Below, one piece after another: positions 1 to 49,622 of a stretch of DNA of 64,000 nt. Numbering within the stretch: position 1 is the stretch's first letter; every line of letters starts with the position of its first letter. Both the position numbers and the translations under genes were made by a program. The stretch lies in assembly GCF_044647545.1 (NCBI RefSeq), contig NZ_CP172818.1; one strand, written 5' to 3'. Under the pieces are notes generated by a model that saw nothing but the letters and a program-made list of their open reading frames with translations, was not told the origin of the DNA and made no database searches. Origin of the DNA: Escherichia coli. Lineage in GTDB: Bacteria > Pseudomonadota > Gammaproteobacteria > Enterobacterales > Enterobacteriaceae.

Positions 1-672
1 AACGCATTTTGCGATGCCCATCCCGATCATACTGTCGTCGTCTACGCCAACACTTCTGCTGCGGTAAAAGCGCGGGCAGATTGGGTGGTAACTTCAAGCA
101 TTGCCGTCGAACTTATTGATCATCTGGATAGTTTGGGTGAAAAAATCATCTGGGCACCCGACAAACATCTGGGGCGTTACGTGCAAAAACAGACGGGCGC
201 AGACATTTTATGTTGGCAGGGTGCCTGCATTGTGCATGATGAGTTTAAGACTCAGGCGTTAACCCGCTTGCAAGAAGAATACCCGGATGCTGCCATACTG
301 GTGCATCCAGAATCACCGCAAGCTATTGTCGATATGGCGGATGCGGTCGGTTCCACCAGTCAACTGATCGCTGCTGCGAAAACATTGCCACATCAGCGAC
401 TTATCGTGGCAACCGATCGGGGCATTTTCTACAAAATGCAGCAGGCGGTGCCAGATAAAGAGTTACTGGAAGCACCAACCGCGGGTGAGGGTGCAACCTG
501 CCGCAGCTGCGCGCATTGTCCGTGGATGGCCATGAATGGCCTTCAGGCCATCGCAGAGGCATTAGAACAGGAAGGAAGCAATCACGAGGTTCATGTTGAT
601 GAAAGGCTGCGAGAGAGGGCGCTGGTGCCGCTCAATCGTATGCTGGATTTTGCGGCTACACTACGTGGATAA
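1..672 (+). CDS. nadA: quinolinate synthase A, C-terminal part (5' end outside window)
   Basis: Frame 1 is open from nt 1 to TAA at 670-672; translation ends ...[15 protein letters not shown]...DFAATLRG as in NadA; the M at 85 is internal. Confidence 0.93.
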
Positions 673-2367: not shown

Positions 2368-2439
2368 GACGAGTCATCCCTTAATTATTCTCACTTAACT
2401 TTATGACATCATACTGCTTTTAGAAGGGAAAAATTAAAA

Positions 2440-2459
2440 GGGAGAGACTCCGCTCTCCC
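2440..2459 (-). terminator. hairpin downstream of ybgS (putative intrinsic terminator)
   Basis: GGGAGAG-N6-CTCTCCC inverted repeat, followed on the minus strand by a T-rich run. Confidence 0.5.
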
Positions 2460-2480
2460 ATTATTGGCTATTTCGCAGGG

Positions 2481-2861
2481 TTACTGCGTGGTACCGTCGG
2501 TTTTGGTATCGACATCATTGTTGATGCCATCACCGGTTTGGACTTTTTTATTGATATCAGGACAGCGGCCATCTTTGCACATGGTGTTCTTGTGCTCTTC
2601 ATCTTTGGTCATTCCGTCATTGTTCATTGAAGAACCATCCGAATGCAGCATTGTGCCACCAGAACCGGTATTTACCCCGTTATTGTCGACGTTATTTGGC
2701 GCGACATTTTCACGGGCGTCAGGGGCTACCTGGCCCGCATCAGCTGCGGCGTTTGCCTGGCCGTTATTAGTTTGTGCTCCGCTATCGGCAGCCAGTGCGG
2801 CACCGCTGGCAAGGCTTAGAGTGGCAGTCAAAAATAGTGTGGCCAGTTTTGTCATTTTCAT
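2481..2861 (-). CDS. ybgS: small secreted low-complexity protein YbgS
   Basis: 126-aa ORF with signal peptide ([24 protein letters not shown]) followed by N/D/G/T-rich low-complexity sequence and a CKDGRC pair. Confidence 0.85.
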
Positions 2862-3088
2862 AGGATGCTCCTGTTATGGTCGTTATGTCGGATAACCTCT
2901 TCCAACAGTGCATTTGCAGGTGAATATAAGGCAATGGTTTAAGATTTCAGCCAGGCAAAGATACCCAGCAGAGAATCTTGAAATAATTAACAAACAAAGG
3001 AGTTACAGTTAGAAATTGTAGGAGAGATCTCGTTTTTCGCGACAATCTGGCGTTTTTCTTGCTAATTCCAGGATTAATCCGTTCATAG

Positions 3089-3106
3089 TGTAAAACCCCG
3101 TTTACA
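3089..3106 (+). promoter_or_regulatory. TyrR box in aroG promoter region
   Basis: TGTAAA-N6-TTTACA palindrome (tgtaaaaccccgtttaca) about 70 nt upstream of aroG ATG. Confidence 0.65.
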
Positions 3107-3176
3107 CATTCTGACGGAAGATATAGATTGGAAGTATTGCATTCACTAAGATAAGTATGGCAACACTGGAACAGAC

Positions 3177-34134: not shown

Positions 34135-34277
34135 CTAGTATCGGCTTAACCACTAAACACTCTAGCCTCTGCACCTGGGTCAACTGATACGGTGCTTTGG
34201 CCGTGACAATGCTCGTAAAGATTGCCACCAGGGCGAAGGAAGAAATGACTTCGCCTCCCGTATCTGGAAAGGTGTAC
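34135..34277 (+). promoter_or_regulatory. moaA leader RNA: molybdenum-cofactor (Moco) riboswitch region
   Basis: Structured leader directly upstream of moaA containing CGCCUCCC and GGAAAGG near the RBS; assigned from knowledge of the E. coli moaA leader; boundaries approximate. Confidence 0.6.
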
Positions 34278-35267
34278 ATGGCTTCACAACTGACTGATGC
34301 ATTTGCGCGTAAGTTTTACTACTTGCGCCTGTCGATTACCGATGTGTGTAACTTTCGTTGCACCTACTGCCTGCCGGATGGCTACAAACCGAGCGGCGTC
34401 ACCAATAAAGGCTTTCTTACCGTCGATGAAATTCGCCGGGTTACGCGCGCCTTCGCCAGTCTTGGCACCGAAAAAGTCCGTCTGACGGGCGGTGAGCCAT
34501 CTTTACGCCGCGACTTTACCGATATCATCGCCGCTGTGCGAGAAAACGACGCTATCCGCCAGATTGCGGTCACCACCAATGGTTACCGTCTGGAACGCGA
34601 TGTGGCGAACTGGCGCGATGCTGGACTTACTGGCATCAACGTCAGCGTTGATAGCCTTGACGCTCGCCAGTTTCATGCCATTACCGGGCAGGATAAATTC
34701 AACCAGGTCATGGCAGGGATCGATGCTGCATTTGAGGCCGGTTTTGAGAAGGTCAAAGTCAATACCGTGCTGATGCGTGATGTTAATCATCATCAGCTCG
34801 ACACCTTTCTGAACTGGATCCAGCATCGCCCTATCCAGCTGCGTTTCATCGAATTGATGGAAACGGGCGAGGGCAGCGAGCTCTTCCGTAAGCATCACAT
34901 CTCTGGTCAGGTTCTGCGGGACGAGCTACTGCGTCGCGGCTGGATCCACCAATTACGTCAACGCAGCGACGGTCCCGCGCAAGTCTTTTGTCATCCGGAT
35001 TACGCCGGAGAGATTGGCCTTATCATGCCGTATGAAAAAGACTTCTGCGCCACTTGCAACCGCCTGCGCGTTTCCTCCATTGGTAAACTCCATCTCTGCC
35101 TGTTTGGTGAAGGCGGCGTTAACCTGCGCGATCTGCTGGAAGACGATACCCAGCAACAGGCGCTGGAAGCGCGTATTTCAGCGGCGCTGCGGGAGAAAAA
35201 ACAGACCCATTTCCTGCATCAAAACAACACCGGTATTACGCAAAACTTATCGTACATTGGTGGCTAA
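34278..35267 (+). CDS. moaA: GTP 3',8-cyclase (radical SAM)
   Basis: Start chosen at [31 protein letters not shown] (radical-SAM cysteines); the upstream in-frame extension is the leader RNA. Confidence 0.95.

Positions 35268-49475: not shown

Positions 49476-49622
<147 letters not shown>

Follow-up and report, generated by a model that had tools for sequence, protein, structure and literature searches.

The abundant exported protein YbgS of Escherichia coli may be a disordered, hydrophilin-like stress protein of the periplasm

Few small proteins exported by stationary-phase E. coli are as abundant as YbgS, which regularly shows up as a peak in MALDI-TOF spectra yet has no assigned function. 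Its misleading 'homeobox' name is still accepted in recent papers. What kind of protein does ybgS encode, and does its position next to the zinc exporter gene zitB say anything about its role? The original prediction, made from the sequence of the window (the whole 64,000-nucleotide stretch of E. coli DNA that was analysed), described a secreted low-complexity protein and hinted at metal binding. Here we consider the identity, anatomy and context of the gene, and the explanations that they favor.

The gene is indeed ybgS, as had been proposed without mention of its strand, which is minus. The ORF list gives a frame of 126 amino acids with an ATG start (Table 1), and its product matches Pfam family PF13985 (YbgS-like) in a profile search with a score of 207.5 bits (cut-off 27; E=7.6e-62), with residues 3-126 aligned to profile positions 1-124 of 124, and thus over the full length. 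The RefSeq product name is 'YbgS-like family protein' (WP_000784351.1). This is a known, annotated gene of a known family, and the window protein carries both the cleavable N-terminal signal peptide and the C-K-D-G-x-C-P motif that mark PF13985. Of 5426 complete E. coli genomes, 5425 carry the locus, and the family is limited to Enterobacteriaceae and Erwiniaceae. Conservation counts given below refer to 80 orthologues or their 80 loci. Between genera, saturation of synonymous sites leaves dS by region undefined or above 1, and the selection estimates (dN 0.04-0.3, lowest in the C-block) can be used only qualitatively, to say that dN is much lower than dS. Searches of the PDB by sequence and by profile yielded no match at E up to 10, and PADLOC returned none.

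Table 1. Features of the ybgS transcription unit in the window
Feature	Position	Strand	Details and basis
ybgS coding sequence	2481..2861	minus	126 codons plus stop at 2481-2483; ORF list, Pfam PF13985, RefSeq annotation
Sec signal peptide, aa 1-24	2790..2861	minus	MKMTK, hydrophobic core, ALA then A; sequence reading and published top-down MS/MS
Conserved N-block, aa 25-64	2670..2789	minus	conservation across 80 orthologues
Hypervariable, indel-prone G/S/T-rich linker, aa 65-78 in E. coli	2628..2669	minus	cross-genus alignment
Pentapeptide-register core, aa 79-103	2553..2627	minus	MNNDG/MTKDE/EHKNT/MCKDG/RCPDI; register table, 80 orthologues
CKDGRC loop, Cys95-x4-Cys100	2562..2579	minus	TGC AAA GAT GGC CGC TGT; putative disulfide by MS/MS (PMC8629258)
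C-terminal tail, aa 104-126	2484..2552	minus	orthologue alignment
Rho-independent terminator of ybgS, between ybgS and zitB	2430..2459	minus	GGGAGAGCGGAGTCTCTCCC + TTTTAATTTT; terminator scan
Sequence-conserved leader abutting the start codon	2862..2912	minus	includes AGGAG ribosome-binding site 2868-2872; cross-genus alignment
Promoter-like site (putative)	2923..2950	minus	CTGAAA, 16 nt, TATATT; consensus match only, 9/12

The prediction that YbgS is secreted agrees with published data. Top-down MS/MS detected a mature protein that begins with ADSGAQ, the 24-residue signal peptide having been removed by cleavage after ALA24 (PMC8629258), and the published mature sequence is identical to residues 25-126 of the window protein (ADSGAQ...TDGTTQ). 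In the same study, overnight cultures on plates had accumulated much of the 10.5-kDa mature chain, which stood out in the MALDI spectrum together with HdeA, HdeB and YahO, and a disulfide between Cys95 and Cys100 was inferred from the MS/MS data (PMC8629258). YbgS is also present in vesicles from a tolA mutant (PMC7973035). These properties bear directly on the legacy reading of YbgS as a 'homeobox' DNA-binding protein, which goes back to inherited names (PMC2634741, where ybgS appears as 'putative homeobox protein'; UniRef names; and PMC12282026, where YbgS is handled as DNA-binding). The protein has a cleaved export signal, is acidic and shows no confident fold, and a Pfam scan up to E=1 gave the YbgS family alone and no homeodomain. 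The chance that the legacy name is right is close to nil.

The mature chain of 102 amino acids consists of 14.7% N, 12.7% D, 12.7% G, 9.8% T and 9.8% A, with N, D, G and T together making up 50%, which fits the low-complexity chain rich in these five residues that had been described. It contains 16 D+E and not a single F, W or Y, and has a pI of 4.36 and a GRAVY of -1.15. Among 36 orthologues aromatic residues are likewise absent, with a median GRAVY of -1.15 and 8-15% Gly. Orthologues keep this composition along with a good part of the sequence itself, and the low-complexity region is conserved. A resemblance to intrinsically disordered periplasmic proteins had also been suggested, and AF2 is consistent with it, giving no confident fold (pLDDT 48.7 without an alignment and 48.6 with a 20-sequence alignment; pTM 0.12-0.13). 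Since the alignment is shallow, this low confidence fits disorder without proving it, and it is too low for fold matches to the model to be meaningful. Hydrophilins were reportedly defined by Garay-Arroyo et al. in 2000 by Gly above 6%, a hydrophilicity index above 1 and induction by water deficit. Mature YbgS has the composition of a hydrophilin (Gly 12.7%, GRAVY -1.15), whereas the precursor, with its signal peptide still in place, does not (GRAVY -0.71).

Composition is only part of what has been preserved. The family is laid out as two sequence-conserved blocks and a G/S/T-rich linker in which residues have been gained and lost. Within the N-block, N37 and P55 are invariant, and N33, G34, G43, A49 and N64 are conserved in at least 90% of the 80 orthologues. 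Depending on the genus, the stretch from N64 to H90 spans 20 to 63 amino acids, of which G, S and T each account for 15-16%; at one locus (L061) the linker has been enlarged by a 33-nt tandem repeat, and within E. coli there are rare in-frame duplication and deletion alleles in the linker and N-block. No DNA tandem repeats were found in E. coli ybgS. In the core, M84 is kept in 78/80, H90 in 79/80, M94 in 70/80, and K91 and N92 in all 80. The mature chain has exactly two cysteines, both within CKDGRC (residues 95-100) and both inside the pentapeptide core, and C95, K96, D97, G98, C100 and P101 occur in 80/80, so the single cysteine pair noted earlier is a fixed feature of the family. In the tail, K106 (77/80) and V107 (74/80) are well conserved and the terminal TKTDGTxQ is nearly invariant, while the middle part has been lost in some genera.

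How is the gene expressed, and is it tied to zitB? The two genes are immediate neighbors, as had been stated: zitB (1426-2367, minus) lies immediately downstream of ybgS on the same strand, across a gap of 113 nt. This gap holds an intrinsic terminator with a 7-bp stem that includes 5 GC pairs in the terminator scan, and an equivalent hairpin and T-run occurs in 79 of the 80 orthologous loci, which argues against co-transcription. Upstream of ybgS, the leader contains a block, GCACTGTTGGAAGAnGTTATCCGACATAACGACCAnAACAGGAGCAT, that is conserved across genera, and the remaining spacer is poorly conserved. Rfam reported nothing relevant in leader or spacer, its one match being MicX with 16.5 bits, below the gathering score of 75. 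RNAalifold placed 6 pairs with negligible covariation, the single-sequence fold had z=-1.64, and a tested 15-pair structure showed no compensatory pairs. The promoter-like site was the sole sigma-70-like match in the scan and is poorly conserved in other genera. Published work leaves little doubt that the gene is expressed, for the protein is abundant (PMC8629258) and its transcripts are strongly RpoS-dependent: the dependence is 82-fold in EDL933 (PMC2907692), and reads fall from 4003 to 6 in a Salmonella delta-rpoS strain (PMC4330354). In addition, ybgS belongs to the Crl regulon (PMC6469107), figures in the HU cluster among genes listed as osmotically induced (PMC2634741) and has been described as a multi-stress hub gene (PMC9501238). 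We therefore read ybgS, as the best account of these observations, as a monocistronic, sigma-S-driven unit with its own leader, ribosome-binding site and conserved intrinsic terminator.

The neighborhood tells a similar story. The gene lies between aroG and zitB in the window, in 77 of 80 species loci and in distant members too, and almost every locus keeps zitB as the same-strand neighbor of ybgS; yet gpmA, aroG, zitB and pnuC are all equally syntenic around ybgS. In one lineage, that of Mixta and P0132, a two-component system (a response regulator and a hybrid kinase) has been inserted between ybgS and zitB. That ybgS sits beside zitB reflects inherited synteny and no functional tie to zinc export. 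The suggestion of metal binding fares no better at the level of the protein. Orthologues contain 0-5 His and 1-6 Met and range in net charge from 8 acidic to 4 basic and in pI from 4.2 to 9.2; no conserved ligand set (a His, Cys, Asp or Met cluster) was found, and the putative disulfide would tie up the Cys pair. No metal-related NCBIfam family was matched by mature YbgS sequences, and no paper in the searchable literature ties ybgS functionally to zinc or zitB. Calcium-binding motifs (EF-hand, DxDxDG, RTX) did not fit by eye either, and the Pfam and NCBIfam scans listed no such family.

Short repeats had also been predicted, and here the outcome is mixed. DG (five copies, P=0.011) and NN[G/D] (four copies, P=0.0003) occur more often than in composition shuffles, but the motifs that had been named, NNDG and DGxxxN, occur once each, the latter at chance level (P=0.22, composition shuffles), and the true periodicity is five residues. 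Period-5 identities at residues 79-103 (P=0.003) follow the register [M/I/V]-x-K-[D/N]-x, with MTKDE and MCKDG as exact MxKDx units and MNNDG, EHKNT and RCPDI as degenerate ones. The corresponding family, TIGR02953 (pentapeptide MxKDx repeat, MrpX type), has a curated cut-off of 41 bits, and all YbgS scores fall below it: the full-length window protein reaches 12.6 bits, its mature form 14.9 and mature orthologues 16.6-21. It is nevertheless matched by 25 of 36 full-length orthologues (best E=2.8e-6), and once the signal peptide is removed it is the sole NCBIfam family matched, by 8 of 10 orthologues (E 2e-4 to 2e-2). In the reverse direction, Pfam YbgS is the top family for 9 of 13 genuine MxKDx proteins (best 1.7e-5), and one MxKDx protein has a precomputed PF13985 match. 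Aligned by hhalign, YbgS residues 79-102 lie in register with MxKDx at 46% identity and E=0.0029, though with a probability of only 10.6%, and the real score of YbgS against MxKDx was reached by 0/2000 global and 0/2000 local shuffles. Full-length orthologues also gave NCBIfam matches to Asr, Spy, CpxP, CopL, PsiF and ZraP; these vanish without the signal peptide, and we rejected them as effects of the signal peptide or of composition.

We consider it about an even bet (probability roughly 0.5) that YbgS is a disordered, hydrophilin-like periplasmic stress protein made from a free-standing RpoS-driven gene. Published data show that ybgS is transcribed almost entirely under RpoS, and that the precursor is exported and loses its 24-residue signal peptide. 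According to this proposal, the mature protein, probably natively unfolded and very hydrophilic, may then protect by physical means, as a flexible and hydrated chain in the periplasm, under stationary-phase, osmotic or water-deficit stress. The conserved blocks (the N-block, and the core with its disulfide loop together with the TKTDGTTQ tail) would probably contact envelope components, with the indel-prone G/S/T linker serving as a spacer. A protective activity, or a stress phenotype of the ybgS deletion, is absent from the searchable literature; the only phenotype reported is a slightly lower cost of IncHI2 plasmid carriage in Salmonella delta-ybgS (PMC9599605). A hydrophilic shield accounts for the conservation of YbgS only loosely, because a pure shield requires conserved composition alone. 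Sequence conservation extends to about half of the positions, and CKDGxCP is invariant, which points to specific recognition. YbgS could thus be a disordered periplasmic adaptor or regulator whose blocks are short linear motifs for a defined envelope protein or structure, for example an enzyme, chaperone, sensor or peptidoglycan. The KDGR turn, closed by the disulfide, would be the knob that is recognized, and the linker would act as a tether. Conservation that is positional and goes beyond composition, from the invariant N37 and P55 through the almost universal H90 and the core residues to the end of the tail, favors this alternative, as do the variable length of the inter-block linker and the low dN of the C-block. 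We nevertheless regard it as unlikely, since AF2 gives no confident folding elements, such high abundance would be unusual for a stoichiometric regulator, and the genomic context offers no candidate partner, its neighbors being housekeeping genes in ancestral synteny.

The pentapeptide register suggests another role. MrpX of Azospira is oxidized sacrificially at Met by hypochlorite and recycled by periplasmic methionine sulfoxide reductase (PMC4436054), and has been linked to the 'MXKDX repeat protein' (PMC8315932). The YbgS core could be a degenerate MxKDx array, descended from or convergent on such peptides, whose units 4 and 5 are joined by a disulfide; YbgS would then be an enterobacterial, sigma-S-controlled relative of MrpX-type peptides, an MsrP substrate whose exposed Met and Cys are oxidized sacrificially, and would serve the periplasm in stationary phase as an abundant redox sink. 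The reciprocal profile matches, although sub-threshold, exceed all shuffles, the hhalign alignment is in register, M84 and M94 are largely retained, and a Salmonella study grouped ybgS, as a conjecture, with oxidative-stress genes (PMC9599605). Even so, we judge this distinctly improbable. Every score stays under the curated cut-off, and convergence can produce short repetitive matches. The pentapeptide run covers 25 of 102 mature residues and not most of the chain, whereas MxKDx proteins have 7-10 units; Met makes up 3.9% of YbgS (1-7% in orthologues) versus 16-20% in MxKDx proteins, and the N-block and tail have no counterpart there. In Azospira and Brucella there is a genomic link to msrPQ/yedYZ and ECF sigma/anti-sigma genes (PMC4436054, PMC8315932), and neither is found beside ybgS, whose neighbors are aroG, zitB, pnuC and gpmA. 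Less probable again, and in our view very unlikely, is that an acidic, Asp/Asn/His/Met-rich YbgS serves in the periplasm as a ligand or buffer for Zn(II) or some other divalent cation, in cooperation with ZitB. The near-constant same-strand adjacency, the acidic (pI 4.36) and DG-rich E. coli chain and the conserved H90 and M94 near the Cys loop would agree with such a role. Against it stand the terminator in 79/80 loci and the inserted two-component system, the wide variation of His, net charge and pI among orthologues, the Cys pair that MS/MS indicates to be oxidized (PMC8629258), the missing metal-binding family match after signal peptide removal, and regulation by RpoS, Crl and osmotic stress, with a zinc link absent from the searchable literature.

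Reading the zitB adjacency as inherited order, together with the modular anatomy of YbgS, leaves fewer experiments worth doing. The sub-threshold link to MrpX provides one concrete and cheap hypothesis, and if true, it would connect an orphan y-gene to periplasmic methionine-sulfoxide repair.

How does YbgS compare with known systems? The founding member of PF13985 is E. coli YbgS itself (UniProt P0AAV6), and synteny and invariant motifs are common to all 80 orthologues examined. YahO, OsmY and HdeA/HdeB resemble YbgS in being small, exported and RpoS-dependent, and they appear in the same experiments, but they have no sequence relationship to it. They have defined folds (DUF1471, BON and HdeA-type, respectively). 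MrpX of Azospira suillum and BcrX of Brucella are, like YbgS, small Sec-exported charged peptides that are predicted to be unfolded, and residues 79-103 of YbgS follow the five-residue [M]-x-K-D-x register of the MrpX type; YbgS has in addition an N-block, a linker, a Cys loop and a tail. With hydrophilins and LEA-like proteins, a compositional class and not a homologous family, YbgS shares high Gly, hydrophilicity, the lack of aromatic residues and of a confident fold, stationary-phase induction and a listing among osmotically induced genes. Whereas hydrophilins are cytosolic, YbgS is periplasmic, and it adds to the hydrophilin-like character a disulfide loop and strongly sequence-conserved blocks.

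ybgS lies in the gene order nadA-pnuC-zitB-ybgS-aroG-gpmA-galM, and the Pfam family PF13985 'YbgS-like protein' matches the ORF over its full length (207.5 bits against a cut-off of 27). Of 5426 complete E. coli genomes, 5425 matched a 901-nt query comprising ybgS and its flanks, and the arrangement was zitB, ybgS, aroG in every one. A filter-free phmmer search of 1.84 billion cluster representatives returned only 61 matches at E <= 1e-3, many of them fragments, and relatives turned up in 220 of 100,044 species when each was represented by a single genome. We retained 80 loci for comparison, which come from Enterobacteriaceae and a few Erwiniaceae (e.g. Mixta and an Erwinia MAG). Between genera, dN is 0.04-0.3, with its minimum in the C-block, against saturation at synonymous sites, which points to purifying selection. 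An antisense ORF of 143 aa (2464-2895, plus strand) spans the whole gene but has nothing in its favour: it is the minus-strand frame that is conserved, and the product of that frame has been detected as a protein.

A few loci are irregular. One assembly titled 'Chryseobacterium sp. 18061' (CACSKA010000002.1) carries a typical enterobacterial gpmA-aroG-ybgS-zitB-pnuC locus, with neighbours 80-92% identical to E. coli, and is probably mislabelled or contaminated. In Citrobacter amalonaticus AUH_CA_2023_1 (locus L042:4001-4336), the ybgS frame shifts after the CPDVNKK motif, so that the product has 111 aa and ends in foreign sequence; either the assembly is wrong there or the gene is a pseudogene. 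The genome of the divergent homologue P0156 has a PsiF_repeat protein gene between galM and gpmA (locus L085:689-1021) and an acetyltransferase gene between gpmA and aroG.

Features of ybgS, its product and its surroundings (nucleotide positions count on the window; aa, residues of the precursor; L-numbers, loci with ybgS homologues)
Feature	Position	Strand	Description
ybgS	2481-2861	minus	126-codon ORF; RefSeq annotation ybgS
ybgS terminator	2459-2430	minus	Strong intrinsic, 3' of ybgS; GGGAGAGCGGAGTCTCTCCC plus T-run
ybgS leader	2862-2912	minus	About 50 nt directly 5' of start codon; GCACTGTTGGAAGAGGTTATCCGACATAACGACCATAACAGGAGCAT
CKDGRC	2562-2579	minus	TGC AAA GAT GGC CGC TGT
N-block	aa 25-64		Second of five parts, after signal peptide; N37 and P55 invariant in 80 orthologues
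G/S/T-rich linker	aa 65-78		Gains and loses residues; N64-H90 stretch 20-63 aa across 80 orthologues
Core	aa 79-103		Contains M-x-K-D-E-x-H-K-N-x-M-C-K-D-G-[RK]-C-P-D, as read across 80 orthologues
Register position 1, units 1-5			M 50/80, M 78/80, I/V/M 70/80, M 70/80, R/K
Register position 3, units 1-5			H or N, K 59/80, K 80/80, K 80/80, P 80/80
Register position 4, units 1-5			D/E 65/80, D 70/80, N 80/80, D 80/80, D 75/80
Tail	aa 104-126		C-terminal end TKTDGTxQ
Two inserted genes	L079:4557-8275 (Mixta tenebrionis); L082, L084 too		LuxR/GerE-type regulator and 1031-1047-aa hybrid kinase with periplasmic solute-binding domains; cation-efflux gene zitB-like
Moco (molybdenum cofactor) riboswitch	34146-34290	plus	Rfam, at gathering threshold, 103.4 bits
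ES036 (CssrF) sRNA	49544-49586	minus	Rfam, at gathering threshold, 43.3 bits

It is well supported that ybgS is an autonomous RpoS-dependent gene whose product is an abundant, Sec-exported, disulfide-looped periplasmic protein of 10.5 kDa. The precursor begins with what reads as a typical Sec signal (MKMTK, a hydrophobic core, and ALA preceding the cleavage point), and the sequence of a protein found in E. coli O104:H4 by top-down MALDI-TOF-TOF equals residues 25-126 of the window YbgS, which bears out the original prediction of secretion; the authors report removal of the 24-residue signal peptide, infer an intramolecular disulfide between both cysteines, and describe YbgS as a high-copy host protein of overnight cultures, alongside HdeA, HdeB and YahO (PMC8629258). 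A tolA mutant also has YbgS in its vesicles (PMC7973035). Published data show strong expression: RpoS dependence is 82-fold in EDL933 (PMC2907692), and deletion of rpoS in Salmonella lowers normalised ybgS reads from 4003 to 6 (PMC4330354). The gene appears in lists of the Crl regulon (PMC6469107) and of osmotically induced genes (PMC2634741), is named a multi-stress hub (PMC9501238), and rises 5.4-fold upon acrylic acid exposure (PMC6699081). The sole reported phenotype is that ybgS deletion in Salmonella slightly lowers IncHI2 plasmid cost, and the same authors conjecture a redox link from the two cysteines (PMC9599605). The gene, family, export, disulfide and regulon membership are already published or annotated. 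Added here are the modular anatomy, a pentapeptide register with a sub-threshold reciprocal link to MxKDx/MrpX proteins, a conserved terminator uncoupling ybgS from zitB, and a sequence-conserved 50-nt leader. YbgS is an abundant orphan that offers hypotheses to test, though specialists would find nothing unexpected here.

UniRef and published papers still carry the legacy label 'homeobox protein YbgS', and one of these papers infers DNA binding from it and calls YbgS a DNA-binding hub (PMC12282026). We rejected this label, as there is no homeodomain match and the product is exported.

The low-complexity composition first noted is confirmed: the 102-residue mature chain contains N 14.7%, D 12.7%, G 12.7%, T 9.8% and A 9.8%, zero F, W or Y, and 16 acidic versus 8 basic residues (pI 4.36, GRAVY -1.15). 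As described originally, its only two cysteines are those of CKDGRC (aa 95-100). All 36 diverse members lack aromatics and have GRAVY of about -1.15, Gly content of 8-15% and exactly two Cys; pI (4.2-9.2), net charge (8 acidic to 4 basic) and the numbers of His (0-5) and of Met (1-6) vary. AlphaFold2 gave a mean pLDDT of 48.7 for the sequence alone and 48.6 when supplied with 20 aligned sequences, pTM of 0.12-0.13 and no residue above 70; neither sequence nor profile search found a relative in the PDB. Taken with the composition, these results fit, but do not prove, a natively unfolded chain in which the six-residue disulfide ring would be the sole covalent constraint.

The low-complexity region is conserved among orthologues, and K91, N92, C95, K96, D97, G98, C100 and P101 are present in 80 of 80. 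Given this conservation and the strong expression, neither of the two outcomes named with the original observation as refuting it holds. Within E. coli, rare in-frame duplication or deletion alleles occur in N-block and linker alike, and in Pseudenterobacter timonensis a 33-nt tandem repeat (L061:4219-4352; 2.8 copies, 93% matches, coding TGTSATGTTGT units) expands the linker to 63 aa. No tandem repeat was found in the DNA of the window ybgS. The repeats first proposed held up only in part: NNDG occurs once, as does DGxxxN, which is chance level (P=0.22), while five DG (P=0.011) and four NN[G/D] (P=0.0003) are more than shuffles of the same composition give. The real repeat is a pentapeptide register at aa 79-103, read as MNNDG, MTKDE, EHKNT, MCKDG and RCPDI, and each of the last two units has one of the two cysteines as its second residue. 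Self-identities within this segment number six at period 5 and four at period 10, with scarcely any elsewhere (P=0.003).

The leader is much better conserved across genera than the remainder of the aroG-ybgS spacer, and has two GGA motifs, one within the ribosome-binding site; a hairpin predicted there has z=-1.64 and shows no compensatory changes. A post-transcriptional regulator might act at the leader. Genomic SELEX papers on K-12 report that RpoN holoenzyme has a 'constitutive' binding peak within this spacer, here 2862-3176 (PMC8743547).

Composition and proximity to zitB, the zinc exporter gene, had suggested a metal-related role, a reading that is unsupported. A hairpin and T-run equivalent to the window terminator occur in 79 of 80 orthologous loci, and therefore ybgS is monocistronic. 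The order gpmA-aroG<>ybgS>zitB<pnuC is retained in 77 of 80 loci, and since all its genes are equally syntenic, adjacency to zitB carries no specific information. The most divergent members still lie downstream of aroG, and in Mixta and the P0132 lineage, two genes, for a response regulator of the LuxR type and for a hybrid sensor kinase, stand between ybgS and the cation-efflux gene. No functional tie to zinc was found in the searchable literature; because, in addition, candidate ligands vary and the disulfide is oxidised, we consider metal binding by YbgS very improbable. Two blocks show strict positional conservation, which argues that specific contacts count; a model with a specific partner, though unlikely, therefore carries sizeable weight.

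The register also raises the possibility of an oxidant sink like MrpX of Azospira suillum, a natively unfolded, 20%-Met periplasmic peptide of the MxKDx type that is sacrificially oxidised by hypochlorite and re-reduced by a periplasmic YedY-type methionine sulfoxide reductase (PMC4436054); Brucella BcrX, a 'MXKDX repeat protein', is described as its homologue (PMC8315932). TIGR02953 ('pentapeptide MXKDX repeat protein') is the sole NCBIfam model matching YbgS orthologues without signal peptides (8 of 10; E 2e-4 to 2e-2, 15-21 bits against a cut-off of 41), and matches 25 of 36 at full length (best E 2.8e-6). The match also holds in reverse: genuine MxKDx proteins, 13 in number, were taken from Burkholderia, Cupriavidus, Rhodopseudomonas, Rubrivivax and metagenomes, and for 9 of them Pfam YbgS is the best family (best E=1.7e-5). 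hhalign places aa 79-102 in register with the MxKDx consensus (46% identity, E=0.0029, probability only 10.6%). With an HMM that we built from MxKDx repeats, window YbgS scores 17.6 bits, and 0 of 2000 whole-sequence and 0 of 2000 local-segment shuffles exceed 10.6 bits; the resemblance therefore lies in residue order, beyond composition. It spans only about 25 residues, falls below all curated thresholds and fits common descent and convergence alike.

YbgS fails the defining features of the MxKDx/MrpX family: its Met content is 3.9% versus 16-20%, its MxKDx-type repeats are few and degenerate, and its locus has no msrPQ or ECF sigma neighbourhood. An oxidant-sink role is rather improbable. 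We favor a natively unfolded YbgS that would act as a hydrophilin-type envelope protectant under stationary-phase, osmotic or water-deficit stress. Hydrophilins were reportedly defined by Garay-Arroyo et al. in 2000 by Gly above 6% and hydrophilicity above 1, and YbgS falls within this compositional definition for both glycine and hydrophilicity.
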